From NCBI GenBank assembly GCA_029858565.1, contig JAOUEV010000001.1:96001-160000 (forward strand): a DNA stretch of 64,000 bases, given 5' to 3'. Position numbers and translations under genes: made by a program. Source of the DNA: Nitrospirota bacterium (lineage in GTDB: Bacteria > Nitrospirota > UBA9217). The notes under the pieces are model-generated. The model was not told the origin of the DNA. It saw nothing but the letters and a program-made list of their open reading frames with translations, and made no database searches. Shown piece after piece: positions 868-54,835 of this stretch (position 1 is the stretch's first letter; the number at the start of each line of letters is the position of its first letter).

Positions 868-873
868 CAGCGA

Positions 874-1482: not shown

Positions 1483-1556
1483 ATTCCCCTGAAAGCTGAA
1501 GGGTCCCGGAGTTCCGGCGTTTTTCCCGTCGTTAATCCGGACTTCCATTGCCCACT

Positions 1557-4500: not shown

Positions 4501-4754
4501 CCATTGTCCGGCTCGGCGCGCTGTATGCCTCGTCCTCGAACTGGGACAAGGCCGCGGATTGTTACCAGAAAGCACTGGATACGGACGATCTTGCCGAGGA
4601 GTTTTACCTCGGCCTGATGGAGTGTCATATCAGGCGGGGCCGGCCCGCCGAGGCTGCCCGCGTCTATGCCCGCTGCCGGAACAGGCTCATGGCTGCGCTG
4701 GGAGTCGGTCCGTCGCAGACCATCGAAGAACTTCACGCACGCCTGAAACGCTGA
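1557..4754 (+). CDS. MalT-like STAND ATPase / TPR / wHTH-BTAD (SARP-type) transcriptional regulator
   Basis: Walker A GPAGSGKTT, Walker B IVIDDYH, YHPLFREFL, C-terminal TLGRFEI...LWPD...TTLHRLRQLLG and BTAD-like region. Confidence 0.85.
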   Translation: MPRRISIAKLSIPSTKGSVARTRLFKSLDEGSRPVTWISGPAGSGKTTLIASYCAVRRLPTLWYRADAGDGDPATFFYYLGLAARKAAPRRRKPLPLFTPEYFLGAAVFAQRYFEELFGRLPSRAAIVIDDYHTVAPDSPLHAMTAAGFGVLPEGIRVFVTSRSGPPEMLAGLRAQGRIDMLGWEDLKFTREETRALVRNAGHARPAPDLVAGLRATTDGWSAGLALLLERMKKRPLAGLAASHHSREEIFDYFASQILATLDEERRAFLLTTALLPEMTAAAAEDLSGAPRASRILSDFARDQFFTTRHARNDDVYLYHPLFREFLTVRAEREFLPDRLQALRNRAARILQREGRSEDAAALMASAGDWDGLAGIVREQAPDLVRQGRHKTVEHWLLRMPAEVVGRSGWLSYWRAVSAMPSDLTASLNLFERAFRLFEAEGDRPAALLAWSGAVEAIFLERGDFTRLDPWLAWIDEILGDEPEFPSAEAEVRVVTSVVIALTFRRPDHPRVCAWADRAFTLAQRNIDTGARMSLANVLVFFAVLFGDFTKVSFLLGMIRPLVRTADIHPLTAILWLSIDACARYWVDVSSKESLRAVDAGMATARSSGVRVLDFVLAAQGAHAAIAAGDVETAQRFLDEMAPVMATSRLTDQANFYYLLAWLDLYRGDSRAAARHAERGIQLAAEAGAAIPVIATRTGLSHALMSLGDNDAAEKQISLARCTAAGIPSMQMELILLFAEARLAFLRGAEKAGRSVLRKALVLSRDNRYWNMPYWTPGIMTPLCIKALDGGIEREYVRELIRKRNLFPEESLLLTENWPWPVEIRTLGRFEIVVDGKPHRSPGKVQQRPLQLLKALIAFGAREVSQPSLNDALWPDADGDLANQAFKTTLHRLRQLLGNEKAVVVSDGLVTLDQRHCRVDVLVFEQLAGEAAAASSAGATDQARVLLEKAAALYTGTFLPAEEGSVWAVSLRERLKAGYLKTIVRLGALYASSSNWDKAADCYQKALDTDDLAEEFYLGLMECHIRRGRPAEAARVYARCRNRLMAALGVGPSQTIEELHARLKR

Positions 4755-4963
4755 TAAACCGCATTGTTTTTTCTGCATTTTCAAACCGCCCTGAGAGCAG
4801 CCATATTTCCCCGCTGTGCCACAATCGGTTCATCGCATCCGTAACCTATCCGTAACCTGTCCTCTTGTAGTATTCCCCATAGTGAATAACGACGAGTCCC
4901 CTGTCAAGCCGGCGCTGGGCGCTGGCAGGGACACGCCTAACCCGGACAAGCCGGAACTATAAA
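4737..4963 (+). repeat. 227-bp duplicated regulatory block, copy 1 (copy 2 at 7612-7838)
   Basis: near-identical sequence including last regulator codons, direct repeats, -10 and leader. Confidence 0.9.
4837..4873 (+). promoter_or_regulatory. putative SARP/BTAD-activated promoter
   Basis: ATCCGTAACCT x2 (11-bp period) in the -35 position, then TAGTAT at 4868-4873. Confidence 0.6.
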
Positions 4964-4982
4964 ACCAAAGGAGGTAATTATT

Positions 4983-6086
4983 ATGAAAAAGAGACATTTC
5001 GGGTTTTTTGCGGCATTGGTCTTGTGTTTATCATTGATAGCGGCCGCCTGCGGCGGGGGCGGCGGAGGGGGCATCCCGTCGGCGGCTACGCTTACCTCCA
5101 TCGCCGTAACTCCTGCCACCCCGAGCATTGCTCTGGGGACAACGCAGCAGTTCGCTGCCACGGGAACGTTTTCGGACGGAAGCACACAAAACCTGACCAC
5201 ACAGGTTGGCTGGAGCTCTTCGGACACGGGAAAGGCGACCATCAACAGCGCCGGCCTTGCCACGTCAGTTGCCGTCGGGACAACGACTGTCACGGCGACT
5301 TCAGGCAACATCGTGGGAACCGCCACTTTGACGGTAACCAACGCGACGCTCGCATCCATCGCCGTAACGCCGGCAACCGCGAGCATCGCTACGGGCGCGA
5401 CCCAGCAGTTCACTGCCAGGGGGACCTACTCGGACGGCAGCGCGAAGGATATCACGGCGTCGGTGACGTGGGCCTCATCGGACGTCACGCGGGCAACCGT
5501 GAGCGCGGCGGGATTGGCGACTGCGGCTTCAAATGCCGCCGGCTCGACCACTATCACGGCGACCTCGGGAAGCGTCTCGGGGAGCGCCGTGCTCAAGATC
5601 ATCGTCAATCTCCCCAAGACCGGCCAGGTCACATCATACGGCACGGGGTCGATCGACGATGGCGCATTGCAAAGAGGCGTTGCCTGGCCGACTCCGAGGT
5701 TCACCGCCGGAACGGGCGCAGAGGTTGACTGCGTGACCGACAACCTCACCGGGCTCATGTGGGTAAAGGCGCCGGATTCCACCATTACAAGGACATGGCA
5801 GGAGGCGCTGGACTATGCCAATGGTTTGGACCTTTGCGGCCACACCGACTGGCGGCTGCCGAACAAAAAGGAACTCAGGAGCCTTGCCAACTATGGGGAG
5901 GCCGATGTAGCTACATGGCTGAACAACCAGGGATTCAGCAATGTGCAGGCAAGCTTCTACTGGTCGTCTACGACGTACGCCGGTCTTACGACGTTGGCAG
6001 GGTTCGTCAGCATGTTCAACGGCCTCATGGGCTACGACACTAAGGGCGGTAGCTACTACGCGTGGCCTGTGCGCTCCGGACAGTAG
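4983..6086 (+). CDS. lipoprotein, 2x Ig-like (Big_2) + Lcl/DUF1566 C-type lectin domain; putative DGR target
   Basis: lipobox IAAA-C + Gly linker; SIAVTPA..SIA.G.TQQF.A.GT repeats; TDNLTGLMW, DWRLPN..EL, YWSST...WPVRSGQ. Confidence 0.85.
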   Translation: MKKRHFGFFAALVLCLSLIAAACGGGGGGGIPSAATLTSIAVTPATPSIALGTTQQFAATGTFSDGSTQNLTTQVGWSSSDTGKATINSAGLATSVAVGTTTVTATSGNIVGTATLTVTNATLASIAVTPATASIATGATQQFTARGTYSDGSAKDITASVTWASSDVTRATVSAAGLATAASNAAGSTTITATSGSVSGSAVLKIIVNLPKTGQVTSYGTGSIDDGALQRGVAWPTPRFTAGTGAEVDCVTDNLTGLMWVKAPDSTITRTWQEALDYANGLDLCGHTDWRLPNKKELRSLANYGEADVATWLNNQGFSNVQASFYWSSTTYAGLTTLAGFVSMFNGLMGYDTKGGSYYAWPVRSGQ

Positions 6087-7184: not shown

Positions 7185-7610
7185 GTGCGCCCGGCAGGGC
7201 GCACACCCTTGGAGGTGAAAGTCCTCTACGGACCCTGATGACGGGAACCGTTAGCTGAACCGCAAGGGCTGCCGGGCTCACCGGGGTCTGAAGGAAGCGG
7301 TAAGCAAATCTCCGGCCCGAAGAACATGAAGCGCATACAAGGCGCCGCGTCTGGGCGAGACGGCCATAAGATTCAAAGCCCGATAGTCATTCGGAAGGCG
7401 CGGAAGTAGATGCGACGGGTATATGGGGTGAAAGTGGGTGCGCAATACCCGGGGAGGTCTGCGCGTCATGCGGTAGGAGCGTCGTGAGGGAGTCCGGGGA
7501 CGGGTCAGCCCGGCAACCAAGACCCAGGCGCAGCAGCGGCTGTCATCTGCAGCGAGTCCCCTTAAGGCAGGGGAAATACGAACCAGACAGCATCTCAGGA
7601 CGAATCCTCC
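7185..7610 (+). mobile_element. 5' fragment of a group IIC intron (no RT ORF, no domains V/VI)
   Basis: begins GTGCGCCCGGCAGGG 3 nt after terminator T-tract; GGTGAAAGTCC, GAAGGAAGCG, ATACCCGGGGAGGTCTG domain-I-like motifs; 3' boundary approximate. Confidence 0.75.
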
Positions 7611-31863: not shown

Positions 31864-31940
<77 letters not shown>

Positions 31941-32007
31941 GTTTAATTGCGGATTGCGGATTGTAGATTGCGGATTGCACGTTAATCCACAATCCCAAAT
32001 TTAGAAT

Positions 32008-32084
32008 GCGCCTGTAGCTCAGCTGGATAGAGCAACAGCCTTCTAAGCTGTGGGTCAGGGGTTCGAGTCCCTTCAGGCGCGCCA
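32008..32084 (+). tRNA. tRNA-Arg(TCT)
   Basis: cloverleaf, anticodon TCT, CCA end. Confidence 0.96.
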
Positions 32085-32236
32085 ATTCAAATGCGGAACG
32101 GGGAATGCGGAATTTGGAATGAAATACCGCAGATCCCTGACCCGAGGGGTCAAAGGGGAGAGGCTCCCCTGAGATGAATATCGGGGGAGATTCCAGAGGG
32201 GGCTGGCCCCCGCTGGGGAGCCCTTTAGGGGCGACT

Positions 32237-32268
32237 GGTCAGGGGTTCGAGTCCCTTCAGGCGCGCCA
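32237..32268 (+). repeat. 32-bp direct repeat of tRNA-Arg(TCT) 3' end (att-like)
   Basis: GGTCAGGGGTTCGAGTCCCTTCAGGCGCGCCA identical to 32053-32084. Confidence 0.9.
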
Positions 32269-32405
32269 TATAACAATTGCGGATTTGTAAAACCGCAGCA
32301 CCAATAACTGAAAAGTGTATTCCTGATTGCAGGGTGTGATAGTCGGGCCGGAACGAAATGATTACAATCCGCAATCCGAAATCCGCAATCGGGAAATAGA
32401 AACAT

Positions 32406-32482
32406 GGTGGGCGTAGCTCAGTTGGTAGAGCACCAGGTTGTGGCCCTGGTGGTCGCGGGTTCAAGCCCCGTCGCTCACCCCA
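32406..32482 (+). tRNA. tRNA-His(GTG)
   Basis: G-1, anticodon GTG, CCA end. Confidence 0.96.
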
Positions 32483-32573
32483 ATCAATTGCAGTGCGGAG
32501 TGCAGAGTGCGAAGTGCGGAGTGAAGCATCGTCATTCATTCCGAATTCCGCATTCCGGACTCCGCATTTTATT

Positions 32574-32650
32574 GCGCCCGTAGCTCAGCTGGATAGAGCG
32601 TTGGCCTCCGAAGCCAAAGGTCCCGCGTTCGAATCGCGGCGGGCGCACCA
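32574..32650 (+). tRNA. tRNA-Arg(CCG)
   Basis: TTGGC-CTCCGAA-GCCAA anticodon arm, CCA end. Confidence 0.95.
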
Positions 32651-32747
32651 TCTAATTGCGGATTTTCGATTGCGGATTGCGGATTGCAATACATAAAGCG
32701 GATTTTTGTAAATCCGCAATCCGAAATCTACAATCCGAAATCGTCAT

Positions 32748-32824
<77 letters not shown>

Positions 32825-32991
32825 TAAGTAAATTTTGATTTCGGAATGCGAAATGCGGAATGAAAAGCGTTGTTTCGCTCCGGCGAGCGAGGAAAAAATT
32901 CCTCTGATAACCCCATTTTCCTGTTGCATCCGGTACTAAAGATGCGTATAATACGCTCCTTGTCGCAAGGTATTGTATTCCGTTTTTTAAC

Positions 32992-33067
<76 letters not shown>

Positions 33068-33184
33068 TATAAAACACCGAGAGCAGTGGGCGACTGAACG
33101 CACACTGCTCTCATTGTTATTGCGGCATTCAAAGGGCAGGTCGTCTGGAGAACCTATCCCGGGGCCATGCGTTCCTATAACGTC

Positions 33185-33267
33185 GCGAGAGTGGCGGAAC
33201 TGGCAGACGCGCTGGTCTTAGAAGCCAGTGGGCAACCGTGGGGGTTCAAGTCCCCCCTCTCGCACCA
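33185..33267 (+). tRNA. tRNA-Leu(TAG)
   Basis: anticodon TAG, variable arm, CCA end. Confidence 0.95.
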
Positions 33268-33367
33268 TACATCAAATGCGGATTGCGGATTGCGGAATGC
33301 GGAATGAAATAATCCCATCCCACCACGTTCAATCTCTGCTTTATCAATAGCGAACAGGAGCAAGGAC

Positions 33368-42274: not shown

Positions 42275-44104
42275 CTATGGCACATAGAGCGCCTTCACCA
42301 TGCTGACAATGGCCTTCCAGGAGATTCCCTCGTAGTCCAGCAGTTCACCGGATTTCCCGCTCCTGGGAATACTTCTGATCGCAAGGGAATGGATCGGCAC
42401 GGGACGTTTTGAAAGGGTTGCCCGCACAGCATCGGCGATGCCGCCCTCGGGAACATGGTCTTCCACAACGATGATGCATCCTGTGTCGTCCGCCGCCTGT
42501 CTGATCGTCGCGATGTCGACCGGTTTGACGCTGTAAAGGTCGATCACGCGGATGTATATATCCTCCTTTTTCAGCTCTTCATAGGCCTTCAGCGCCTCAT
42601 GGACCGTAATGCCGGCTGCGACTATCGTCGCCATATCCCCTGAGTTCGACCGCAGGACCTTGCTGCCGCCTATCCAGAAAGCTTCGTCGTTGCGATATAA
42701 AACCGCGGTAGGATTGCGCGTTGTCCTGAGATAGCTGATGCCGGTGAATTGCGCCATCAGTTCCGTCAGTTTTTCCGCGGACACGGCGTCCGAGGGATAG
42801 AGCACCACGCTCCGCTGGACGCTTCTGAACATGGCCAGGTCCTCCAGCCCCATCTGGGAGGAGCCGTCCTCGCCGATCGACACGCCGGCGTGGGATCCGC
42901 AGAACTTGATGTTCCCGTTGGAATAGGCTGCCATGCGCACCTGGTCAAAAGCACGGGTAAAGAAAGCCGCAAAGGTGGATACAAAGGGGGTCTTGCCCCG
43001 GAGAGCCATACCGAGCGCGGCGCCTACCATATTCTGTTCAGCAATGAACATTTCAAAGAACCGCTCGGGATGTTTTGCCTTGAACAGCTCTGCATAGGTC
43101 GAATTGCTCACCTCGCCGTCAAGGACCGCCAGATCGGGATACTGCACTGCAAGGCGCGCCAGGGCCGTGCCATAGGCATAGCGCGTCGCGATCGGTTTGT
43201 CAGGATCATAGAGCGATGCCGGGGCCTTGATACTTTGCTGGTATGCCGGTCTCTCGTTGTCGGGCTTTGTCAGTGAACCGTGAACCGACTTGTCCACGGG
43301 CCCCAGCTCTTTGAGCGCCAGCTCCAGTTCATCCGAATTCAGCGCTTTGCCATGCCAGCCGTTCTTGTTCTCTATGAAAGAGACGCCCTTTCCCTTGATG
43401 GTCCGTGCGATGATCATGCAGGGCTTGTCGCCGGACTTCATTGCCTGGCCATAGGCGGTCTTGATGAGATAAGGGTCATGGCCGTCGATCTCAACCGCCA
43501 GCCAGCCGAATGCTTCTGCCCGCTTTCGGTAGATATCAAGAGCATGTCCGTACATGGTCTCTCCCCGCTGACCGAGCCGGTTCACATCCACGATCGCCGT
43601 GAGGTTCCCGAGCTTATAGTAGGAAGCGATCGCCATGGCCTCCCAGACCGATCCTTCGGCCATTTCGCCGTCACCCAGAAGCACATAGGTGCGGTAGGGG
43701 AGCTTGTCGAGGAACTTCGCGTTCAGCGCCATGCCTACGCCGATCGACAGACCCTGTCCAAGCGAGCCGGTGGCGGCTTCTGTATACCTGAACGCGGGCG
43801 TAGGATGGCCTTCCAAAGGACTTCCGAACTTCCTGAGGCTCATAAGTTCATCGTCGGTGACAGCGCCTGCCGCTGCCCAGAGCGCGTAAAACAGCGGGGA
43901 AGCGTGGCCTTTTGAAAAAATGAGCCTGTCGTTGTTGGGATGGCCGGGATCGTCAAGGTCATAGCTGAAGATGCCGCTGAAGAGAAGCACGGTCATCAGG
44001 TCGGCCGCTGAAAGGGAGGATGTGGGATGGCCGGAACCGGCCCTGGTCGTCGAGACCAGGATATTATAACGGATCAATTTTGCGAGTGCTGATAGATCGT
44101 TCAC
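42275..44104 (-). CDS. tkt: transketolase
   Basis: GSGHPTS, SKGHA, GSLGQG, GDGE..EG, IAEQN, GEDG.S. Confidence 0.92.
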   Translation of the reverse strand: MNDLSALAKLIRYNILVSTTRAGSGHPTSSLSAADLMTVLLFSGIFSYDLDDPGHPNNDRLIFSKGHASPLFYALWAAAGAVTDDELMSLRKFGSPLEGHPTPAFRYTEAATGSLGQGLSIGVGMALNAKFLDKLPYRTYVLLGDGEMAEGSVWEAMAIASYYKLGNLTAIVDVNRLGQRGETMYGHALDIYRKRAEAFGWLAVEIDGHDPYLIKTAYGQAMKSGDKPCMIIARTIKGKGVSFIENKNGWHGKALNSDELELALKELGPVDKSVHGSLTKPDNERPAYQQSIKAPASLYDPDKPIATRYAYGTALARLAVQYPDLAVLDGEVSNSTYAELFKAKHPERFFEMFIAEQNMVGAALGMALRGKTPFVSTFAAFFTRAFDQVRMAAYSNGNIKFCGSHAGVSIGEDGSSQMGLEDLAMFRSVQRSVVLYPSDAVSAEKLTELMAQFTGISYLRTTRNPTAVLYRNDEAFWIGGSKVLRSNSGDMATIVAAGITVHEALKAYEELKKEDIYIRVIDLYSVKPVDIATIRQAADDTGCIIVVEDHVPEGGIADAVRATLSKRPVPIHSLAIRSIPRSGKSGELLDYEGISWKAIVSMVKALYVP

Positions 44105-44156
44105 AAACTCCTCCTCAAGAAACCCAGCGTTAGAACGCGGACGTTCTGCTCCCGCA

Positions 44157-44672
44157 CTAGGGCAGCAGGCTTTTTACATCCACCGGCGGCTCGTCCTGGG
44201 ACCCTTCTCCCTTGGCCTTGCCTCCGATCTCCAGTCCTGCTTCGCGGTAATAATTGTACCCCGGATACTTGCCCGGCCCGCTGATAAGCAGGTCCTCCTT
44301 CTCATACACCAGGTTCGTGCGGAGATATTCTCCCATCTCGAAGTCCGGCGTGAGCTGGATCGCGCAGGTCGGGCAGGCTTCTTCGCAGTACCCGCAGAAG
44401 ATGCAGCGGGAGAAATTTATCCGAAAGAACTCCGGGTAGCGCCTTCCCATTTGGTCTTCGGTCGCCTGGAGCGAAATGCAGTCCACCGGGCAGGCAACCG
44501 CGCAGAGATGACAGGCAACGCAACGCTCCCGTCCGTCAGGATCGCGGGAGAGAATGATCCTGCCGCGCCACCGGGGCGCGAGCGTGGAGCGCTCCTCGGG
44601 GTACTGGACCGTGATCCGCTTCCGGAACATGGTCATGAAGACCGTGAGTATGGATCGCAGAATACTAAACAT
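44157..44672 (-). CDS. nuoI: NADH-quinone oxidoreductase subunit I
   Basis: two CxxCxxCxxxCP; QYPEE. Confidence 0.95.
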
Positions 44673-44808
44673 GGTTGTTGACACTGAGGACACTGACAAG
44701 GCCTTTGACACAGATAACGGCGGATAGGAGCCTATGAAAATGCTGGATGAATCTGTTACAAATATCACGCATCTTCATAGCCGTTCTCTGAGTCTTCAGT
44801 GTCTACAA

Positions 44809-45762
44809 CTATCCTTTCATCAGTATCCATGCACCAGTCAGTAGCAAATTCCCCACCGCCAGAGGCAGGCAGACCTTCCATCCAAAGGACATCAGCTGGT
44901 CGTACCTGGGCCGGGGAAGACTGGCGCGCAGCAGGATGAACAGACAGATGAAAAAGAACGTCTTGAGCGTGAACCACACCAGCGGCGGCAGCCAGGGGCC
45001 GAGCCAGCCGCCGAAGAACAGGACCGTGATGAGCGACGAGATCAAGGTGATGCCGAGATATTCGCCGACGAAGAACAGGCCGAACTTGAGGCCCGAGTAC
45101 TCCGAGTGAAAGCCCGCGACCAGTTCGCTTTCCGCCTCGGGCAGGTCAAAGGGCAGGCGGTTGGTCTCCGCGGTCCCGGCGATCAGGAACAGCATGAAGC
45201 CGACGAACTGATAGCGGATGAACCAGCCGTCCCGCTGGGCTTCGATGATGCGGTTCAGGTCAAAGGACCCGGCGAGCATCACCACGCCCATGAGCGACAG
45301 GCCCATGAAGGCTTCGTACGAAAGCATCTGGGCTGACGATCGGAGCCCGCCGAGGATCGAGTACTTGCTTCCCGAGGCCCATCCCGCGAGAACGACGCTG
45401 TACACGCCAAGTGACGACATGGCGAGGAAGAAGAGCAGCCCCATGTTCAATTCCACGACCTGGATGCCCGGAGCAAAAGGCACCACGGCAAAGGACATGA
45501 GCGTGACCGTGACGATAATGGCCGGCGCCATGATGAAGACCGGTTTGTTCGCGAAAGGCGGGACCCAGTCTTCCTTGAAGAGGACCTTGATCATGTCCGC
45601 AACGACCTGGAGCAGGCCGAAGGGGCCGACGCGGTTCGGGCCGTACCGGTCCTGCCAGAGCGCCAGCAGACGCCGTTCGAGCCAGATCAGCATCCCGCCA
45701 ACGGCCAGGAGGGTGAAGAGGACGGCGAAGGAGACCAGTATGTGAGTAAGGCTGTTGCTCAT
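44809..45762 (-). CDS. nuoH: NADH-quinone oxidoreductase subunit H
   Basis: ERR...QDRYGPNRVG, PFDLPEAE.EL..GF..EYSG. Confidence 0.96.
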   Translation of the reverse strand: MSNSLTHILVSFAVLFTLLAVGGMLIWLERRLLALWQDRYGPNRVGPFGLLQVVADMIKVLFKEDWVPPFANKPVFIMAPAIIVTVTLMSFAVVPFAPGIQVVELNMGLLFFLAMSSLGVYSVVLAGWASGSKYSILGGLRSSAQMLSYEAFMGLSLMGVVMLAGSFDLNRIIEAQRDGWFIRYQFVGFMLFLIAGTAETNRLPFDLPEAESELVAGFHSEYSGLKFGLFFVGEYLGITLISSLITVLFFGGWLGPWLPPLVWFTLKTFFFICLFILLRASLPRPRYDQLMSFGWKVCLPLAVGNLLLTGAWILMKG

Positions 45763-45907
45763 GGCAATACGGATAGAACAGAAGGACCATTGATCGCACG
45801 AAGGCACGAAGTCACGAAGAAAGGCAATTTCACTCTCCTGGTCTTGATCAGAGTTGACTCCTCCGTGTCTTCGTGGCTTCGTGCGAGACTGCTTTTGACA
45901 TCGTCCG

Positions 45908-48463
45908 CTACATTGTCATCCGAGGATCCTGCTGATCGTCCATCGGTCTTCTCTTGCCAAGAGCAGGCGATAAATTACTCAATTCCTCAGATCCGAAAAT
46001 GAAGTATTGCGGTGATTCTGCCGGGTCTTCACTAAGATCGATCCGGAAATACTCTGATTGGCCGCCTATCATTTTGATCAATCTCGTGCCTGTGCTCTCT
46101 TTGCGAAGGTCTCCGCCCACTTCCTGCTGGAACCTGTTCAACGCCTGGACCGAGTTCCATCCCGGGGACCAGTACCGGGAAATGAGCGGAGCGGGCGGCT
46201 GCTGTTCCGAGCCTTCCATGGAAAAGGCGAGCGGGCTGTCCGCGTCATACGCGGGTTTTGGTTCATGAACGGTTCGGTCGGCGATCATGGAGGTCCTGCC
46301 GCTGTAACGGTGCGACTGGCGGGGAACCTTCTGGCCGGCGATCCGGAAACCTGCAGGAGGCACCAGATCGGCCAGCTCCGCGAAGAGCGGCAGTTCCCGG
46401 CTCATCTTGCGGATAATGTCGTCTAAGGTCGCGAAACCGCCGGGAGCCGGGTGTTGCGTCGCCATCATTATAGCATTGATCCACTTCCAGCCTGCTTGAA
46501 TATCTCCTCTTGGCACGAAGACCTCATTGTACCGCTGCGGCCGGGTCTCGTAATTGATCAGCGTTCCGGATGATTCTGCAAAGGTCGCCGCGGGCAGGAC
46601 AACGTCAGCCTGGTCAGCTGTTCGATGCATGATATGGTCAAGAACGATGATATTCTTCGCTCTTCCGAGGAACTGTTCGACGCTTGCTTCGTCAGCTCTG
46701 CGGTAGAGGTCGTTCTCCAGGATAATGACCGTGTCCGCTAAACCATCCTGCATGACCGTGAATGCCTCGTCAAGGGTCCTTCCGCCAAGGAGTGCTGCAC
46801 CTAGGGTGTTGCATTCATGTACTGCGAATGCTAATTGCACAGCTTTTCCCTTTAGCTGGAGCGCCCGGGCGATGTTCGCTGCTGTTTGTACTACTCCCGT
46901 GCTTTGGCAGCCTGTCCCGGATACGATCAGAGGATGCTTGGCATTCATGAGAACCGTTGCGATCTCTTTGGCAAGAGCGTCAACGTCCTGCCCCCTCACT
47001 TCGGTCCTCTCTCCAGAGGATAAGGGAGGGATATTGGGATCGAGCTTCTGAGATATCGCTGACGCCAGCCGAACAATGTCCTGGATCGGAACGTGCGCTG
47101 TCTTTGCCGCGACATCATCGAGCCGGGTCTCTGCAGGAGAAATGATGTAGACCGGGCTTTTCGCGCTCTGCCCTGCGTTCCGCACGGCATTATCGTCCCA
47201 GAGCGGCAGTTTCATGGCTGCCGCGATCTCGAACTGTTTGTTCCTGCTTGCCTGACGCACTGCAAGGGCCATCAGGGGGGCTGTATTCGGTAGGTCCTCG
47301 CCAAGTATCAGGACAGCATCGGCGGCCTGTATCTCTCGGAGCGAAGGAGAAGAGGCAGGGCTGTTCTTCTGAATGTCGATAATCAGCGAAACAAGGGATT
47401 GTTCCTCGTTCCCAATGCCGCTGAAAAAGCTATTCTCCCCGGCCAGCGTTCTGAGAGCGAAGTTCGATTCCAGCGACGCACGGGGCGAGCCTATGGCTAT
47501 GACGCCTTTTGCTTTGGACAGGATATCGGCGATATGGGTGAGTACCGTCTCTCTATCAGCTGGCTTCCCCCCCTCGCCCCGGCCCTCTCCCGCGGGGGGA
47601 GAGGGAGATTTTACCAGGGGAGTGCGGATGCGCTTATGGCTGTTCACGAACTCGTACCCGAACCTGCCCCGGTCGCAGAGGAAATAACCGTTAATGTCGC
47701 GGTTATAGCGGTTCATGATGCGCCGCAGAGACCCGTATCGTTCACCGGCGATGGTATTGCACCCCACGCCGCAATGGACGCAGATGGACGGCGCCGTCTG
47801 GAGGTCCCACTTGCGGGTGTAATGCTCCTTGAGGGTCTTGTCCGTGAACACGCCGGTGGGACAGATCTCGATCAGGTTGCCGCTGAACTCGCTTTCGAGG
47901 GGGCCGTCCGCGTGCCTGCCGAAATAGACGTGGTCGTGGGCGCCAAAGACGTTCAGGTCCCTGCCGCCGGCCACACCTCGATAGAAGCGGACGCAGCGGT
48001 AGCACTGGATGCAGCGGTTCATCTCATGATTGAGAAAGGGGCCCAGGTCCTGGTTCTGGTGCGTGCGTTTTCTGAAACGGCTCCGCCGATAATTATGGCC
48101 CGTCATGACCGTCATATCCTGGAGATGGCATTCTCCTCCTTCGTCGCAGACCGGACAGTCATGGGGATGGTTCAGCATGAGCTGTTCGACAATGCCCTTT
48201 CTGAACGCCCGGGCTTCGGGGTCGTCCACGGAGATGCGCAGTCCTTCGGAAACCGGCGTCATGCAGGACATGATGATGCGGCCCTTGGCATCCTTGTCAT
48301 CCTTGTACTGCTTCACCGCGCATTGCCTGCATGCGCCCACGGCATGCAGGGCCGGGTGCCAGCAGAAGTAAGGCAGGTCAAAGCCCAGGGAGAGGCAGGC
48401 CTGGAGGAGGTTCTGGTCAGGCTTGACCTGGTGGGGTTTGTTGTCGATAAAAATCGTCACCAT
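45908..48463 (-). CDS. nuoG: NADH-quinone oxidoreductase subunit G
   Basis: FCWHP, GACRQC, HPHDCPVC, RCIQCYRC, CVHCGVGC. Confidence 0.95.
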   Translation of the reverse strand: MVTIFIDNKPHQVKPDQNLLQACLSLGFDLPYFCWHPALHAVGACRQCAVKQYKDDKDAKGRIIMSCMTPVSEGLRISVDDPEARAFRKGIVEQLMLNHPHDCPVCDEGGECHLQDMTVMTGHNYRRSRFRKRTHQNQDLGPFLNHEMNRCIQCYRCVRFYRGVAGGRDLNVFGAHDHVYFGRHADGPLESEFSGNLIEICPTGVFTDKTLKEHYTRKWDLQTAPSICVHCGVGCNTIAGERYGSLRRIMNRYNRDINGYFLCDRGRFGYEFVNSHKRIRTPLVKSPSPPAGEGRGEGGKPADRETVLTHIADILSKAKGVIAIGSPRASLESNFALRTLAGENSFFSGIGNEEQSLVSLIIDIQKNSPASSPSLREIQAADAVLILGEDLPNTAPLMALAVRQASRNKQFEIAAAMKLPLWDDNAVRNAGQSAKSPVYIISPAETRLDDVAAKTAHVPIQDIVRLASAISQKLDPNIPPLSSGERTEVRGQDVDALAKEIATVLMNAKHPLIVSGTGCQSTGVVQTAANIARALQLKGKAVQLAFAVHECNTLGAALLGGRTLDEAFTVMQDGLADTVIILENDLYRRADEASVEQFLGRAKNIIVLDHIMHRTADQADVVLPAATFAESSGTLINYETRPQRYNEVFVPRGDIQAGWKWINAIMMATQHPAPGGFATLDDIIRKMSRELPLFAELADLVPPAGFRIAGQKVPRQSHRYSGRTSMIADRTVHEPKPAYDADSPLAFSMEGSEQQPPAPLISRYWSPGWNSVQALNRFQQEVGGDLRKESTGTRLIKMIGGQSEYFRIDLSEDPAESPQYFIFGSEELSNLSPALGKRRPMDDQQDPRMTM

Positions 48464-48468
48464 AGACT

Positions 48469-48947
48469 TTTAGCCACGGAAGAGGCGGATACTTCTATAA
48501 AAAAGCACAGTAAACCTCTTTTGCGAACGTAAGGATTATCTAAAGTACACGACGGACTATTTTCAATTTATCAGCGAAATTGATGAGAAGGCCTACTTTC
48601 TTGCCGGTGGCCTTCAGGTAATTGATAAGCTGTGCTTCGTGAATCTTTGCCAGCTCAGAAACTGCTTTAAGTTCGACTATGACGGCGTCCTCGACAAGAA
48701 GGTCAGCGAAATATTCACCTACGAGCTTTTCCTCAAAGAATACGCTGATGGGAGCTTGTTGGCCCGCTTGCAGGCCTTTTGAAGCCAGCTTGATCATCAT
48801 GGCATTCTCATATACTTTCTCGGCAAAACCAAAGCCCAGCTGATTATGAACGTCGTAGGCAGCAGAAATGATCTTGTCGGTAATATCGGCAAGATGCAGG
48901 TTCGATTCTGTTGTTGTCATGTGTTATCCGCCTCTTCCGTGGCTAAA
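48469..48947. mobile_element. 479-bp element with perfect 23-bp terminal inverted repeats carrying a GxxExxY gene
   Basis: TTTAGCCACGGAAGAGGCGGATA (48469-48491) / TATCCGCCTCTTCCGTGGCTAAA (48925-48947); mobility inferred. Confidence 0.65.
48540..48920 (-). CDS. GxxExxY protein (PD-(D/E)XK nuclease superfamily)
   Basis: VH..LG.GF.EKVY, ADLLVE..VIVELKA, AQLINYLKAT...GLLINF. Confidence 0.92.
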   Translation of the reverse strand: MTTTESNLHLADITDKIISAAYDVHNQLGFGFAEKVYENAMMIKLASKGLQAGQQAPISVFFEEKLVGEYFADLLVEDAVIVELKAVSELAKIHEAQLINYLKATGKKVGLLINFADKLKIVRRVL

Positions 48948-50223
48948 TAGATTTCCAGGGACAATGTTTGTTGTTGATATGCGATTCAAAATCCTCCAGG
49001 AAATACTTCAACGCGCTCTGGAGAGGCTCCACCGCTCCCGGCGCCAGGGCGCAGAAGGTATTGCCCGGTCCGAGAAGCCTGCACTGTTCCGTAAGCAGGT
49101 CCAGATCTGACATTTCGCCCTTGCCTGTCTCAATGGCCTGGAGCGTCCTTTCGATCCATGGCAGGCCTTCGCGGCAGGGCGTGCACCAGCCACAGGACTC
49201 GCGGCGGAAGAACTTTTCCAGACTATGCACGAACCCGACCGGGCAGGTCCGGTCATCGAGCACGGTGATCGTCCCGGTGCCCATGCGGCTGCCCGCTTTC
49301 ATGACCGAGTCGAAGTCCATTCTGACGTTCATGTGATCCGGCGTCAGGAAGTCGGTTGAAGCGCCGCCAGGCATAAATGCCCTCAGGCGGTAACCATCCA
49401 TCATGCCCCCGGCCTGCTCCTCGATCAGGTCGCTGACCATCGTTCCCATGGGCAATTCCCAGAGACCCGGGTTCCTGACCCTGCCGCTGACTCCATAGAT
49501 CTTCGTACCGCTATCATTGATCCCGCCGATCGACTTGAACCAGTCAGCACCGTTGTTCACGATATGGGGAAGGTTTACCACCGTTTCCACATTGTTCACT
49601 ACCGTCGGCCGTCCCCAGAGACCGGAGACCTGGGGAAAGGGCGGTTTGGCGCGCGGGGTGGCGCGTTTGCCTTCCAGCGCATTTATCAAGGCGGTCTCTT
49701 CGCCGCAGATATACCTGCCGGCGCTGGTGTGGATCCGCAGATCAAGCGAGAATCCGGAGCCGAGGATGTTTTCGCCCAACAGCTTATTTTCGTATGCTTC
49801 TGCAATGGCCTTGTTCAGCAGCAGCTCCGCACGGCCGTATCCCTGGCGCAGGAATATGTACGCATGGGAAGCCTGGATCGCATAAGCGGCCACGACGATG
49901 CCTTCAATGAGCTGGTGAGGATCTCCTTCGAGCAGGTAACGGTCCTTGAACGCTCCTGGCTCCATTTCATCGGCATTCACAATGAAGTACTTTTGTTTTG
50001 GCGCGTTCTCACCCATGGGCACAAAGCTCCACTTCATGCCTGTGGGAAAACCCGCGCCGCCGCGACCCCGAAGGTTCGATGCCTTTACTTGGACCTGCAC
50101 ATCCTGCGGGGACATGGTCGAGAGCATCGTACGGACGGCCCGGTATCCGCCGGCCTGCTCGTATTCCATGAGCGATAGCGGGTCCTCGTTGGGCCGGATG
50201 TTCTTTGTCAGTGGTCGTTCCAT
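48943..50223 (-). CDS. nuoF: NADH-quinone oxidoreductase subunit F
   Basis: LRGRGGAGF, NADEMEPG, YICGEETAL, ESCGWCTPCREG. Confidence 0.96.
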   Translation of the reverse strand: MERPLTKNIRPNEDPLSLMEYEQAGGYRAVRTMLSTMSPQDVQVQVKASNLRGRGGAGFPTGMKWSFVPMGENAPKQKYFIVNADEMEPGAFKDRYLLEGDPHQLIEGIVVAAYAIQASHAYIFLRQGYGRAELLLNKAIAEAYENKLLGENILGSGFSLDLRIHTSAGRYICGEETALINALEGKRATPRAKPPFPQVSGLWGRPTVVNNVETVVNLPHIVNNGADWFKSIGGINDSGTKIYGVSGRVRNPGLWELPMGTMVSDLIEEQAGGMMDGYRLRAFMPGGASTDFLTPDHMNVRMDFDSVMKAGSRMGTGTITVLDDRTCPVGFVHSLEKFFRRESCGWCTPCREGLPWIERTLQAIETGKGEMSDLDLLTEQCRLLGPGNTFCALAPGAVEPLQSALKYFLEDFESHINNKHCPWKSI

Positions 50224-50232
50224 AGAATCTTA

Positions 50233-50325
50233 TTTAGACACTGAGGACACTGAAAAAATATGAATGACTCAACATCAGAAGTTTCTTCGTCTTCTCATAT
50301 GTTGTCAGTGTCCTCAGTGTCTAAA
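50233..50325. repeat. 93-bp element with perfect 21-bp inverted repeats
   Basis: TTTAGACACTGAGGACACTGA / TCAGTGTCCTCAGTGTCTAAA. Confidence 0.85.
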
Positions 50326-50326
50326 A

Positions 50327-50791
50327 TCAGCTGTATTTGCTTAATATCTCATCAATTGTTTCCGGCGTCACCGGTCCGAACAGTTCGTCGTCCACCATCA
50401 TGGCAGGCGCGCGGTCGCAGGCGCCGAGGCATGAGGCAGGGAGGAGCGTGAACCTGTTGTCTCCGGTTGTCTCGCCGTATCCGATCCCGAGCTTTGTGCT
50501 GATCAGCTTATACAGGTCATCATGCCCCAGGGACCAGCAGACCATGCTGTCGCAGAGCGCGATCACATGGCGGCCGACAGGCTTGCGGAAGATGAAGCTG
50601 TAGAACGTGGCAACAGCGTCCAGTTCGGCAGGCGTCATGGAGAGCTGCGCTGCAACATCCCGCAGGCTCGCGTCGGATACCCATCCTCGCTTTTTCTGCA
50701 CCACGCGCAAGGCCTCGATGGCCGCCGCTTCCGGCCGTTCGCAGTGCTTCAGTTCCTCGGATATTTCCTGTTTTTCCTGCTCAGTCAGCAT
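50327..50791 (-). CDS. nuoE: NADH-quinone oxidoreductase subunit E
   Basis: VATFY, CDSMVC, CLGAC. Confidence 0.95.
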   Translation of the reverse strand: MLTEQEKQEISEELKHCERPEAAAIEALRVVQKKRGWVSDASLRDVAAQLSMTPAELDAVATFYSFIFRKPVGRHVIALCDSMVCWSLGHDDLYKLISTKLGIGYGETTGDNRFTLLPASCLGACDRAPAMMVDDELFGPVTPETIDEILSKYS

Positions 50792-50865
50792 ATCCAGTCA
50801 ATTCCTGCCTCCAGGGGGGAGAGGGGCCTATATATCTGATCTTACCCTGCGTCTCCGTGTCCAAT

Positions 50866-52614
50866 TTATCTATCCAAATCCGCCAGAATAAAATCAATGC
50901 TCCCCAGGATCGCCATGAGGTCGGCGATCATCAGACCTTTTGCGATCTTCGGCACCATCTGCATGTGCGGGAACGAAGGCGTGCGGATGCGGGTGCGGTA
51001 GGAGTGGATGCCTCCGTCGCTCACGAGATAATATCCGTTGCTGCCCTTTGTCGCTTCGATGCCCATGAACGCCTCGCCCGCTGGTATGACCGGGCCCCAG
51101 GATAGGCCCAGAAAATGGGTGATCAGGGTCTCAATGTCCTTCAGGGTCCGTTCCTTGCGCGGCGGGGTCGTGAGCGGGTGATCGGATTTATAGGATCCCT
51201 CGGGCATGTTCTTCATGCACTGTTCAACGATCCGCATGCTCTGGCGGATCTCCTCGATGCGGACCACGGCGCGGTCATAGCAGTCGCCGTTCACTGCAGT
51301 GGGGATATCGAAGTCGAACATCTCGTAGCCCGAGTAAGGCCGCTTCCTTCGAAAGTCCCAATCGAGTCCGCAGGCGCGGAGACCCGGTCCGGTCACTCCC
51401 CACTCGACCGCATCTTCGAGCGAATAGGCGCCGACTCCCCGGGTCCTTCCTTTGAAGATGCTGTTCCGCATGACGATACTGTCGTATTCCTTGAGCCGGT
51501 GCGGAAGATAGGCGAGGAAATCCCTCACCAGCCGGTCCCAGCCTTTTGGCAGGTCCTGAGAAACACCGCCGATCCGGAACCAGGCCGGGTGCATGCGGCC
51601 GCCGCAGACCGCTTCGACGATCTCAAAGACCTTTTCCCGGTCAGAGAAAGTGTAGAACACCGGAGACAAGGCCCCCACGTCCTGGGCAAAGGTGCCGTAC
51701 CAGACCAGATGGCTCTGGATGCGGAACAGCTCTGCCATCATCACGCGGATAACCTTTACCCGGTCGGGCACCTCGATCCCCGCGAGCTTCTCGACCGCCA
51801 GTACATATGCCAGGTTGTTCATGACACCGCCGAAGTAGTCGATGCGGTCCGTGTAGGGAATGAAGGTGTGCCAGGTCTGGCGCTCGGCCATCTTTTCCGC
51901 GCCGCGGTGATGATAGCCGATGTCCGGGACAGCGTCCACGATCTCTTCTCCGTCGAGCTGCAGGATGATGCGCAGGAGACCGTGCGTACCCGGGTGCTGG
52001 GGGCCAAGGTTCAGGAACAGGTGGTCCGTGCCGTCCTTTGCCGGCGCCATGCCCCATTCCTCGGGCCGGAACTTGAGCGCCTGCTGCGCAATGTCCATCT
52101 GGTCCTCGGGCATGCGGAACTGTCCCATTTCCGTTGCCCGCGCGGGATGCTCCTTCCTGAGCGGGTGGCCTTCCCATGCGGGCGGCAGCAGGATGCGCTT
52201 GAGATGGGGGTGGCCGTTGAAGCGGATGCCGAAGAGGTCCCATGCTTCCCGTTCGTACCAGTTCGCGTTCCGCCAGAGTCCGGTGATGGACGGCAGGGTG
52301 TGAGTATCTCCCAGGAGCGGGACCTTGATCCTGATGTCCTCGTTCCGGTCAAAGGACAGCAGGTGGTACACAACAGTGAAATCGGACATGGGCTGGTCTG
52401 GTCTGTTCGTCCGCGTGCGTTCGTCAATGACCGTGAGGTCATAGAGCATTTTGTAGGGCCGGCCGATCTTCGTCTTGAGATGCAGGAGTACGTCGGCGGT
52501 CCGGTCAGGGGAGATCCAGAGCGTGGGGATGTTGTCCTTTGCGGGCTGTACCGCGAGGATCGCGGGGCCGAAGGAGCTGCTTAGGTCGGCGATGATAGGG
52601 TTAGGAAAAGTCAT
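50866..52614 (-). CDS. nuoC: fused NADH-quinone oxidoreductase subunit C/D
   Basis: [40 protein letters not shown]. Confidence 0.95.
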
Positions 52615-52628
52615 AAAAACAAGCCATG

Positions 52629-52784
52629 TTTTACCGCAGAGGACGCGGAGGACGCCGAGAAAAGCCTAAAAAAAGCGCAAGAGCCGATCCTGTTTTAGAA
52701 GGATAAAACTAATGCAAACAGGCTCATATGCTCCATAAGAATATATCTGACCTTTGAATTTCTCTGCGTCCTCTGCGGTGAAAA
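52629..52784. repeat. inverted-repeat element (CGCAGAG family)
   Basis: ACCGCAGAGGACGC ... GCGTCCTCTGCGGT. Confidence 0.8.
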
Positions 52785-52795
52785 AGCCGTTTTTG

Positions 52796-53410
52796 TTAGA
52801 CTTCATCGGGTGAACGCAGCACCGAAGCCTTCACCCGTTCCGCCCGCTTCATATCCCTCATGCATGGCGGTTCGGGAGCGGTCGTATCCTGCCGTCCCGC
52901 GACCCAGGACAGGGGGCGTTTCTCCTTGCCCACCTTGGCGCTCAGGAGCAGGAGCCCTTCCATGAAGGCTTCGGGCCGGGGAGGGCAGCCGGGAACGTAG
53001 ACGTCAACGGGCAGGAGCTTGTCGACTCCCTGGACCACGCTGTAGATATCGTACATGCCGCCGGAATTGGCGCAGGAGCCCATGGAGATTACCCAGCGGG
53101 GCTCCATCATCTGTTCGTAGAGCCGTTTGATCACCGGCGCCATCTTGATGAACACCGTGCCGGCCACGATCATGAGGTCAGCTTCGCGGGGCGTGCCCCG
53201 GAGCACTTCTGCGCCATACCGCGCGATGTCGTACTTGCTCGTAAGGCTGGCGGCCATCTCCACGTAGCAGCACGAGAGGCCGAAATTGAAGGGCCAGATC
53301 GAGTTCTTCCGGCCCCAGGCGACCATGTCCTCAAGCCGCGTCAGGAGCAGGCTTTGGCGCACTGCGTCGTCAATGTCTGGGATGCTGCTTCTGGTTGTAG
53401 ACCAGTTCAT
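52796..53410 (-). CDS. nuoB: NADH-quinone oxidoreductase subunit B
   Basis: [26 protein letters not shown]. Confidence 0.96.
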
Positions 53411-53555
53411 ACGTTATAATCCCCGGAGCGGGTCAGCTTTAGAGCTTTAAGCGGTAGAGCGGTAAGCAGCCACAACCAGTTATAGAGCATTAAGCGGTAG
53501 AACCGTTAGCAACCGACTGTTTATCTTCCCTTTGTGCCTGCTTACGGCTTATCGC

Positions 53556-53936
53556 TTACTGCTTGCGACTCGATTTAACCTTTCCCCAGTCAAGAGCTCC
53601 CTGACGCAAGATGTACATGAACGCGACGGCGAACACCCCGGTGAACAGCAGGACCTCCACGTACCCGGTCCACCCGATCTCCCTCACCGACAGTGCCCAG
53701 ATGTACAGATAGACCGCCTCGACATCGAAGATAAGAAAGAACATGGCGATGAGGTAGAACTTGACGTCGAACCGGCCGCCCACGGTGCCGGTGGACTGTA
53801 CCCCGGACTCATAGGGCTCATCGGTCGCGCGCTCATGGTGGCGCTGGCCAAGCAGGGCCGAGAGCGCAACAATGAACGCGACAATGGTGACCGTCGCAAG
53901 GAAGTACAGGACCAGCGGGAACAAAGGACCATCCAA
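53556..53936 (-). CDS. nuoA: NADH-quinone oxidoreductase subunit A (start uncertain: TTG 53936 or ATG 53972)
   Basis: PYESG, KFYLIAMFFLIFDVE, GALDW. Confidence 0.92.
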   Translation of the reverse strand: MDGPLFPLVLYFLATVTIVAFIVALSALLGQRHHERATDEPYESGVQSTGTVGGRFDVKFYLIAMFFLIFDVEAVYLYIWALSVREIGWTGYVEVLLFTGVFAVAFMYILRQGALDWGKVKSSRKQ

Positions 53937-54121
53937 GGCGATTTCGCTCCTGTTATTGCTTTTCTCAAGCATACCGAGTGCCCGGGGGAATGTCAAGCAG
54001 GCATAAGCGGAATGCGCGGTCCGCGCGGGTCTTTCATTCGGCCATATAGCCGTTGACAAGTCCTGTCAACGCTGCTAATCTACACAGGTCTGCGCCAAAC
54101 CACCATACTGAAGGAGAGAAC

Positions 54122-54835
54122 ATGAAGAGAACGGTCACCATGCTAGTGTGTCTGTGCCTGATAGCGCCGGCCGCGATAGCGGCGGAGAAGGGCAAGTTCA
54201 AGACCAAGAAAGAACAGCTGAGCTACAGCCTCGGCTATGATATGGCAACCAATTTCAAGCGGACCGAGCTCGACGTCGATCCCGCCATGATCATGCAGGG
54301 AATGAAGGATGCCCAGGCCGGAAAACCGAAAATGTCAGAAGAGGAGATGCGCGAGGTCCTGATGGAGGCTCAGCAGAAGTTCCGGACCAAGCAGCAGGAG
54401 CTGATGGCGAAGCAGCAGGAACAGCGCAAATCACAGGGGGAGAAGAATAAGAAGGAAGGCGAGGCTTTTCTTGAAGAGAACAAGAAAAAACCGGGCATCG
54501 TGACGCTGCCGAGCGGTCTGCAGTACAAGATGCTTGTGGAAGGAAAGGGCAAATCGCCCAAGGCAACGGACAAGGTTACGGTCAACTATCGGGGGACGCT
54601 GATCGACGGAACCGAGTTCGACAGTTCCTATAAGCGCAATCAACCGGCGACGTTCGCGCTGAACCAGGTCATCAAGGCCTGGACCGAAGGCGTCCAGCTC
54701 ATGAAAGAAGGCGGGAAGATCCAGCTTTTTGTGCCGTCCGAGCTTGGATATGGAGACCGGGGCGCGGGAGCGCAGATCGGACCCAACGCCGTGCTGATCT
54801 TCGAGGTCGAGCTGATCTCGGTGGCGGCTGAGTAG
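54122..54835 (+). CDS. FKBP-type PPIase (FkpA/Mip-like)
   Basis: signal peptide, SYSLG, SGLQY, YRGTLIDGTEFDSS. Confidence 0.92.
   Translation: MKRTVTMLVCLCLIAPAAIAAEKGKFKTKKEQLSYSLGYDMATNFKRTELDVDPAMIMQGMKDAQAGKPKMSEEEMREVLMEAQQKFRTKQQELMAKQQEQRKSQGEKNKKEGEAFLEENKKKPGIVTLPSGLQYKMLVEGKGKSPKATDKVTVNYRGTLIDGTEFDSSYKRNQPATFALNQVIKAWTEGVQLMKEGGKIQLFVPSELGYGDRGAGAQIGPNAVLIFEVELISVAAE

Follow-up and report, generated by a model that had tools for sequence, protein, structure and literature searches.

Hairpins at the gene junctions of a Nitrospirota nuo operon as probable shells of small selfish gene cassettes

Nearly every junction between the genes of one bacterial nuo operon holds an inverted repeat, which raises the question of where these repeats come from and whether they serve the host. 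The operon, nuoA-B-CD-E-F-G-H-I by Pfam assignments, lies on the minus strand of a 64,000-nt stretch of Nitrospirota bacterium DNA (contig JAOUEV010000001.1, positions 96,001 to 160,000; hereinafter designated the window). An earlier note made from the sequence alone had described the repeats as mostly 'empty' derivatives of gene-bearing elements, with arm pairing kept by selection. Our analysis favors, with a probability of roughly 0.72, the reading that the junction hairpins are shells of small selfish gene cassettes. A full cassette would consist, in order, of a purine-rich arm (2-4 tandem words of 7-10 nt), a few bases, an open reading frame (ORF) of ~125 codons, its stop, and the same words inverted. 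The cargo would be a GxxExxY nuclease of the PD-(D/E)XK type at nuo, and elsewhere a four-helix-bundle S23p/Avd-like protein, a DUF559 nuclease or another gene. Cassettes would insert between a stop and the next start within co-transcribed operons and in sense orientation, and so be transcribed by the host operon; most copies would lose the ORF through internal deletion and leave a 60-190-nt hairpin.

Filled and empty elements at the nuo junctions

Clear gene-less hairpins occupy four of the seven nuoA-I junctions (B/CD, E/F, G/H and H/I), the A/B junction has a weak composite hairpin, CD/E a remnant, and F/G an intact GxxExxY gene (Table 1). On a uniform hairpin score six of the seven junctions reach z of at least 7. 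When the junction RNA folds were compared with 200 dinucleotide shuffles each, no shuffle was as stable as any of the four clear stems; the whole A/B junction folds weakly, its paired arrays score 15.5, and its hairpin-only score reaches z 7.0 against mononucleotide shuffles. The inverted repeats listed in the earlier note are thus present at the places it gave, and their unit structure is real at E/F, G/H, B/CD, A/B and H/I, the last sharing the words of E/F. The description of the elements as 'empty' holds for the four clear hairpins and weakly for A/B, and fails for F/G, which is filled (and which the same text also used as its filled reference); a 'degenerate half' at CD/E fits a junction in which RNA folding detects no hairpin.

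The elements lie between stop and start codons. The stems at B/CD, E/F and H/I start 0-1 nt past the upstream stop and end 0-9 nt before the downstream ATG: at B/CD the stem runs from 1 nt past the nuoB stop up to the nuoCD ATG, and at H/I it begins with the base that follows the nuoH stop and leaves 2 nt in front of the nuoI ATG. At F/G, the 5' arm contains the nuoF stop TAG, and 5 nt separate the end of the 3' arm from the nuoG ATG. No minus-strand terminator-like site of the region 44000-54300 is found inside any junction element, so none of them shows the form of an intrinsic terminator (GC-rich stem, short loop, T run), and no promoter-like site on the operon strand falls within the elements. 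Inspection by eye of the 5' flanks of the nuo stems gave nothing convincing for a split Shine-Dalgarno sequence bridged by the stem.

Stem ends 0-9 nt from a host stop or start at B/CD, E/F, F/G and H/I, four stems far more stable than shuffles, the lack of terminator- and promoter-like sites on the operon strand, and downstream genes that show no obvious Shine-Dalgarno sequence by eye would all suit host RNA elements under selection. Such elements would act in processing, stabilization or coupling and set the output of the nuo cistrons relative to one another; small ORFs would be carried along now and then. We consider this account improbable in view of what the hairpins contain, how they are distributed and how their arms pair.

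The F/G junction carries a full copy, with perfect arms around a 126-aa ORF. The encoded protein matches PF13366 (PDDEXK_3; E 2e-41, 141.5 bits against a cut-off of 22) and TIGR04256 (E 1e-41, 142 bits against a cut-off of 35), and residues D73, E83 and K85 are invariant in an alignment of eight sequences. A PDB sequence search with this protein returned no match at E <= 1. Its AlphaFold model has a predicted local distance difference test (pLDDT) score of 93.9, and the nearest PDB folds are Cas4 SSO0001, the archaeal Holliday-junction resolvase Hjc (120 aa) and lambda exonuclease, with template modeling (TM) scores of 0.45-0.58. The cargo is therefore predicted to be an intact PD-(D/E)XK nuclease; the model has the generic fold of that superfamily, and a preference for DNA with branches or hairpins is no more than a hint.

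Empty hairpins retain the ends of such a cargo. Compared with the full F/G cassette of a relative (L009), the E/F hairpin is identical at 33/38 nt on the left, where the match extends 17 nt past the arm through the cargo ATG and first codons, and at 33/34 nt on the right, where it covers the bases that follow the cargo stop. As judged from this alignment, the E/F element is an internal-deletion derivative of a GxxExxY cassette. Genome-wide, hairpins built of GACACTGAG words, H/I among them, share the inner box CTATGAA...TTCATAG, which contains the start codon of the cargo and the complement of that codon. Four empty hairpins elsewhere have the same arms as the F/G cassette, two of them with a GACACTGAG hairpin nested in the loop, and the B/CD element is one of a deletion series in which the arms are conserved and the length falls from 381 to 260 to 181 nt. 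Cargo ends kept in empty copies speak against a host RNA element with passenger ORFs.

Table 1. Genes and junction elements of the nuo region, with cargo genes at orthologous junctions of two relatives. Arms are given as positions, length and complementarity; RNA fold is the z value with the number of dinucleotide shuffles as stable.
Feature	Position	Strand	Arms	RNA fold	Description
Promoter	53996-53968				Sigma-70-like, upstream of nuoA
nuoA	53556-53936	-			
A/B element	53448..53564	-	53458-53475 / 53532-53549; 18 nt, 89%	z -0.85; 44/200	GTAAGCx purine-rich heptamer array over the nuoA stop, then two pyrimidine-rich arrays
nuoB	52796-53410	-			
B/CD element	52614..52798	-	52614-52650 / 52762-52798; 37 nt, 76%	z -4.46; 0/200	Empty hairpin, arms of CGCAGAGGA words
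nuoCD	50866-52614	-			
CD/E remnant	50792..50865	-		z +1.63	Half-arm GACACGGAGACGCAGG and CCCCTCTCCCCCC relic (window 50815-50835)
nuoE	50327-50791	-			
E/F element	50233..50325	-	50233-50263 / 50295-50325; 31 nt, 94%, perfect 21-nt core	z -7.54; 0/200	Empty hairpin, arms of GACACTGAG words
nuoF	48943-50223	-			
F/G cassette	48469..48947	-	48469-48491 / 48925-48947; 23 nt, perfect		Full cassette, arms starting TTTAGCCACGG, around GxxExxY ORF 48540-48920
nuoG	45908-48463	-			
G/H element	45794..45886	-	45794-45819 / 45861-45886; 26 nt, 88%	z -2.73; 0/200	Empty hairpin, xCACGAAG octamer arms; spacer base of each word singly mismatched
nuoH	44809-45762	-			
H/I element	44671..44812	-	44671-44708 / 44775-44812; 38 nt, 76%	z -4.92; 0/200	Composite hairpin, outer arms GACACTGA, inner half-arm ATCCGCC/GTGTCAAAGG, kept box CTATGAAG / TTTTCATAG
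nuoI	44157-44672	-			
89-aa ORF at B/CD	L009:2561-2830	+			Hydrophobic
DUF559 gene at CD/E	L009:4681-5082	+			
DUF559 gene at CD/E	L019:2417-2806	-			

Orthologous junctions in relatives

Relatives were located through NuoF, which gave 20 loci (19 of the same family and a single one of a different family, cited here by L numbers), and their genes were mapped by tblastn. The length of their nuo junctions varies from -13 (overlap) to about 490 nt. At F/G, an intact GxxExxY gene is present in 5/17 relatives (L001, L002, L007, L009 and L016), or in 6/18 assessable genomes when the window is included; L015 has a decayed 306-nt copy, the flanking genes overlap in L008 and L020, and the junction is empty or short in the rest. 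The E/F junction is filled by a GxxExxY gene in 1/20 relatives (L010) and measures 0-32 nt in four. At CD/E, 2/20 relatives carry a DUF559 gene (PF04480, Vsr-like PD-(D/E)XK) between CCCTCTCC/GGAGAGGG arms. At B/CD, the 89-aa ORF of L009, which has no Pfam or NCBIfam match, is enclosed by the CCGCAGAGGACGCAGAGGA arms that the window's empty element also has, and L019 retains a 5'-truncated copy of it; with this ORF, the arm design has a third or fourth type of cargo. The operon strand carries all nine nuclease cargos (seven GxxExxY, including the window's, and two DUF559) as well as the 89-aa ORF.

ORF-filled alleles at orthologous junctions, together with the E/F match to L009, thus bear out the earlier proposal that the hairpins are non-autonomous derivatives of ORF cassettes targeting stop-start junctions. 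The range of cargo is wider than that proposal had it: GxxExxY and four-helix-bundle genes both occur, and so do DUF559 genes and the 89-aa ORF.

Occupancy of the junctions changes even within the genus. The G/H junction is tight (-8 to +5 nt) in 12/13 relatives and 145 nt long in the window, which therefore carries an insertion there, and tight junctions of -4 to +5 nt in relatives likewise mark the window's state as the inserted one; among the genomes compared, the G/H element is present in the window's genome only. Among 117 junctions in relatives, 36 have a hairpin at z of at least 4.5; of the rest, 31 measure less than 40 nt and 50 exceed that length but show no significant hairpin. In four relatives (L003, L004, L011 and L012) none of the nuo junctions has a significant hairpin. 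The word type at one junction also varies within the genus. The F/G protein of L001, from the window's own genus, is 56% identical to the window's and 77% identical to that of L009, and so represents the other GxxExxY type; the phylogeny of the cassettes is accordingly incongruent with that of their hosts. On these sequence comparisons there is turnover of cassettes at the junctions, probably with horizontal replacement. Junction occupancy and word type that shift within the genus, and relatives with no significant hairpin, speak against host RNA elements that set cistron output.

The element family in the genome and across phyla

The 3.92-Mb genome was searched with a gapless inverted-repeat scan and, for arrays of period 7-10, with Tandem Repeats Finder (TRF). 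The scan, which the earlier note had proposed as a check, yielded 95 loci genome-wide, mostly with word-array arms. An inverted partner within 800 nt (score of at least 14) accompanies 200/1588 TRF arrays, compared with 15 in a complement-only control, and the 200 paired arrays merge into 139 elements whose arms are tandem 7-10-nt words. Loops measure 20-60 nt in 71/139 elements and more than 200 nt in 22. The purine-rich arm comes first and the pyrimidine-rich arm second in 105 elements, with the reverse order in four. The hairpins are not specific to nuo, which is nevertheless the densest cluster: its 9.3 kb hold six elements, whereas the genome averages 0.33 per 10 kb and the next densest cluster has three. 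Because the arms are written in many unrelated vocabularies, no single covariance model can represent all elements.

The same counts bear on the origin of the arms. Local replication slippage, which would build microsatellite-like 7-9-nt arrays that fall into inverted pairs by chance, with no mobility and no common origin, would be in keeping with the abundance of heptamer arrays (193 of period 7 scoring at least 40, against 4 of period 6) and with the abundant heptamer repeats described, in the accessible parts of two reports, from other bacteria (PMC4692102, PMC4679880). It leaves unexplained the excess of inverted pairing (200 against 15), the 105-to-4 polarity, the non-repeat inner sequence common to empty copies and full cassettes, and the same arm families in other genera and phyla. 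Slippage is already disfavored by these observations, and we rate it as very unlikely.

Arms and cargo are linked within the genome. All seven PF13366 genes lie inside word-array arms, each with its own vocabulary, and all five PF05635 genes above the cut-off have word arrays on at least one flank. The two most similar GxxExxY paralogs (50% identity) also have the most similar words, CGCAGAG and CGCAAAG, though seven genes are too few for this to count. Of the 110 elements located off contig ends, 67 lie between co-directional ORFs, 20 between convergent and 10 between divergent ones, and 13 could not be assigned; the presence of elements between convergent and divergent genes is a further point against host RNA elements of the operon.

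The linkage extends across phyla. Taking one genome per species, we found 584 relatives of the GxxExxY protein, kept the best 80 of the 584 and had enough flank for 76; the 80 come from Nitrospinota, Bacteroidota, Chloroflexota, Planctomycetota, Verrucomicrobiota, Desulfobacterota, Bacillota, Ignavibacteria and others, and include cassettes of the isolates Geomobilimonas luticola (L058) and Flavobacterium tiangeerense (L075). When the 130 nt before and after each ORF were compared, flanking inverted arms (score of at least 14) were present at 44/76 loci and at 0/63 controls whose flanks were shifted by 400 nt. Tandem words make up these arms too (GACAGGAT, CACGGAT, CGCGGAT, CACTGAT and similar), and the GACAGGAT class spans several phyla. 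At 19/37 classifiable loci the nearest protein neighbor has the same arm word, compared with 14% expected, and 0/5000 label shuffles reach the observed identity difference, a test that overstates the association since kin share word labels. Most cassettes lie in sense orientation: at the 55 loci with long ORFs on both sides, both neighbors are on the cargo strand in 45 and both on the opposite strand in 4, by a crude strand call (longest open frame) that picks a shadow frame at the window's own locus.

Short, numerous, intergenic and hairpin-forming elements, in which one arm design is common to several unrelated cargos, could also be repetitive extragenic palindromic (REP)/REPIN- or miniature inverted-repeat transposable element (MITE)-like repeats moved in trans, for example by a Y1 transposase of the REP-associated tyrosine transposase (RAYT) or IS200 type, with the ORFs uninvolved in their spread. 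The genome has 12 Y1_Tnp matches. However, two Y1 transposase (PF01797) genes that lie between inverted repeats (hereinafter given by contig of this genome, G000; C19:19735-20324 and C82:36838-37488) have different, non-periodic flanks, REP/RAYT-like and IS200-like, and thus belong to a separate repeat system in the same genome. The correlation of arm word with GxxExxY protein similarity across phyla and the private arm vocabulary of every GxxExxY gene in the genome also argue against spread that bypasses the ORFs, and inspection of the flanks of the six nuo elements gave no consistent target-site duplication, the arm ends not being fixable to the base. Movement in trans thus appears quite unlikely.

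Elements are also nested in one another. At C62:99880-100062 and C96:6755-6945 the loop of a GCCACGGAAGAGGCGGATA-word hairpin contains a second hairpin, of GACACTGAG words, an arrangement that suggests hairpin tips as sites of insertion.

Word arrays occur at other operons as well. In the window, the spacers of seven tRNA genes in a row (31864-33308) are full of heptamer arrays and hairpins (ATTGCGG, AATGCGG and AGTGCGG words), so the same type of element colonizes a tRNA operon too. A four-gene NiFe hydrogenase operon (L022, which is C62:97000-116500; positions 628-5028) has word-array hairpins at two junctions, and 2 kb downstream of it a further GxxExxY cassette adjoins an XcyI-type restriction-modification pair.

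Arm pairing, proposed spread and related systems

The earlier note had taken the self-complementarity of the arms to imply selection on structure. For covariation we took the commonest family (xCGCAAAG words) and compared, in 17 hairpins whose arms are in register, the three most variable positions. Matches between a hairpin's own arms number 3/17, 1/17 and 7/17, compared with 7.7, 3.8 and 8.4 expected under random re-pairing of arms, with p = 0.006 for so low a count at the first position. If anything, mismatches are favored over matches, so that the inner helices are 3-7 bp long and broken by single mismatches, a pattern that recurs in the G/H element. Mismatches in the 67 elements of known transcription direction comprise 44 G·U and 60 A·C, which gives no wobble signature of a selected sense-strand RNA. 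The covariation result covers one family in one genome; in the CACGAAG/CACGGAG family, 0/299 candidates had both arms in register under the pattern applied. Selection on pairing is thus not supported, and the lack of arm covariation and of a sense-strand G·U excess is another argument against host RNA elements. The arms are complementary because both are built of the same word, as in terminal inverted repeats, and we infer that their complementarity is a feature of construction like those repeats and not the outcome of compensatory evolution.

Within the reading of the hairpins as cassette shells, several steps can be proposed. The cassette would be promoterless and dependent on transcription of the operon. 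Purine words (GAGG, AAGG) end 5-12 nt before the cargo ATG, and the purine-rich 5' arm may serve as the ribosome-binding site of the cargo; the 105:4 polarity would then have an explanation too. Once transcribed into mRNA, the stem would loop the insert out and leave the host stop and start adjacent, so that an insertion would be tolerable in a tightly coupled operon. Spread could proceed by nuclease-started copying into hairpin tips or loops, with shared arms as the homology.

Several observations weigh against this reading. No mobility event was directly seen, and with the closest relative at only 76% NuoF identity there are no strain-level empty and filled alleles. None of the cargo families is a known transposase or an established homing enzyme, no cargo remnant can be recognized at G/H or A/B, and 32/76 GxxExxY loci lack a flanking repeat at a score of at least 14; the lack of a definable target-site duplication at the nuo junctions, the crude strand call and the overstated label-shuffle association count here as well. 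Finally, the B/CD arms are nearly identical across three genera although their loops differ, which drift does not explain; these conserved arms could have a host function, as expected of host RNA elements.

The closest described counterpart lies in rRNA. We know of no function for the GxxExxY proteins or the four-helix-bundle '23S IVS' proteins, both very large families, nor of an explanation for the origin and spread of rRNA intervening sequences (IVSs); the four-helix-bundle proteins are related to Avd of diversity-generating retroelements (DGRs). As described in the accessible parts of a report on Coxiella burnetii, the helix-45 23S IVS is a 428-nt stem-enclosed insert with an S23p (PF05635, four-helix-bundle) ORF, and 2-3 tandem GACAGAT heptamers, variable in number among strains, separate an AG-rich Shine-Dalgarno-like stretch from the ORF start (PMC4990558). 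The same text describes RNase III excision and decay of the ORF, with a 176-bp deletion in one strain, and its authors view the IVS as selfish and horizontally spread by a mechanism unknown to them (PMC4990558). The F/G cassette shares the long inverted-repeat stem around a small ORF and the tandem heptamers beside it, and the PF05635 genes of this genome are also flanked by word arrays. The nuo elements differ in lying between protein genes in mRNA rather than in an rRNA helix and in carrying a GxxExxY nuclease; excision by RNase III was shown for the IVS. By eye and without structural alignment, the 23S gene of this genome (3001 nt, against a 2925-position model) has no insert at helices 25 or 45.

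Mobile elements offer partial parallels. Like MITEs, the elements have terminal inverted repeats and many short copies, one or few ORF-bearing copies per arm family, and empty copies whose ends are homologous to the longer, ORF-bearing one. They differ from MITEs in that their arms are tandem word arrays, that several unrelated cargos share one design, and that the ORF is not a known transposase, the cargo family matches being PF13366, PF04480, PF05635 or none. Homing endonuclease genes resemble them in the recurrence of a small nuclease gene at one site (F/G in 6/18 genomes) beside alleles that lack it, and in a phylogeny incongruent with the host; homing genes, however, need no hairpin arms, and the cassettes here occupy many non-homologous sites. 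As far as the accessible text of one survey goes, the DUF559/Vsr group includes a group I intron homing endonuclease, and PF13366 is listed there with function 'Unknown' and multiple transfers (PMC3424549). REP/REPIN sequences with RAYT are likewise short intergenic hairpins in high copy number, and Y1 genes are present in this genome; arms made of periodic words in many vocabularies, and the different flanks of those Y1 genes, set the present elements apart.

Abundant intergenic heptamer repeats are also familiar from cyanobacteria as short tandemly repeated repetitive (STRR) sequences. Other cases, taken here from the accessible parts of the reports, are abundant GGGNATC heptamers in Xanthomonas and Nostoc (PMC4692102) and TAACTGA heptamers in Beggiatoaceae, for which one inverted set is mentioned (PMC4679880). 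Those parts describe, as here, transcribed 7-nt tandem units in variable number, enriched between co-directional ORFs near stops and starts; they differ in describing direct arrays, with G-quadruplex or regulatory roles proposed and no link to an enclosed ORF (PMC4692102, PMC4679880). In the literature consulted, in which subscription journals were not covered, there is no account of such cassettes in operon junctions or outside rRNA, and the 23S IVS is the only described relative.

A bolder proposal, which we put forward tentatively and hold to be possible rather than probable, is that the elements form a cross-phylum, undescribed class of selfish cassettes occupying hairpin slots, the mRNA counterpart of rRNA intervening sequences. 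A structure-specific small nuclease, or other cargo, between word-array arms would insert copies of itself at the tips of hairpins built of the same words, and would be tolerated because the stem folds the insert away and holds stop and start together, preserving translational coupling, and the periodic mismatches in the arms would be an escape from surveillance of double-stranded RNA or palindromes.

If the hairpins are cassette shells, a bench-testable model follows, in which a stem-plus-small-gene design occupies ordinary operon junctions, arm word and protein move together, and the gene-less hairpins found in large numbers in many genomes are deletion products of that design. Such hairpins are easily misread as regulatory RNA structures or terminators, and they inflate the intergenic distances used in operon prediction. 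How cistron stoichiometry survives six insertions in one tightly coupled 9-kb nuo operon is a question in its own right. The series of orthologous junctions, the direct alignment of an empty with a filled element, the covariation test with its negative outcome and the clustering of elements in a core respiratory operon are new here.

Around the operon (window 44157-54059), the nuo genes end at nuoI; nuoJ-N are not adjacent, and the next gene downstream (42275-44104, minus strand) matches transketolase domains. Several further NuoF-like genes are present in the same genome. Rfam at gathering thresholds gives nothing in the nuo region, and elsewhere only tRNAs and a group II intron, with a match to group II intron domains D1-D4 at window 7271-7443 (RF02001, 110 bits).

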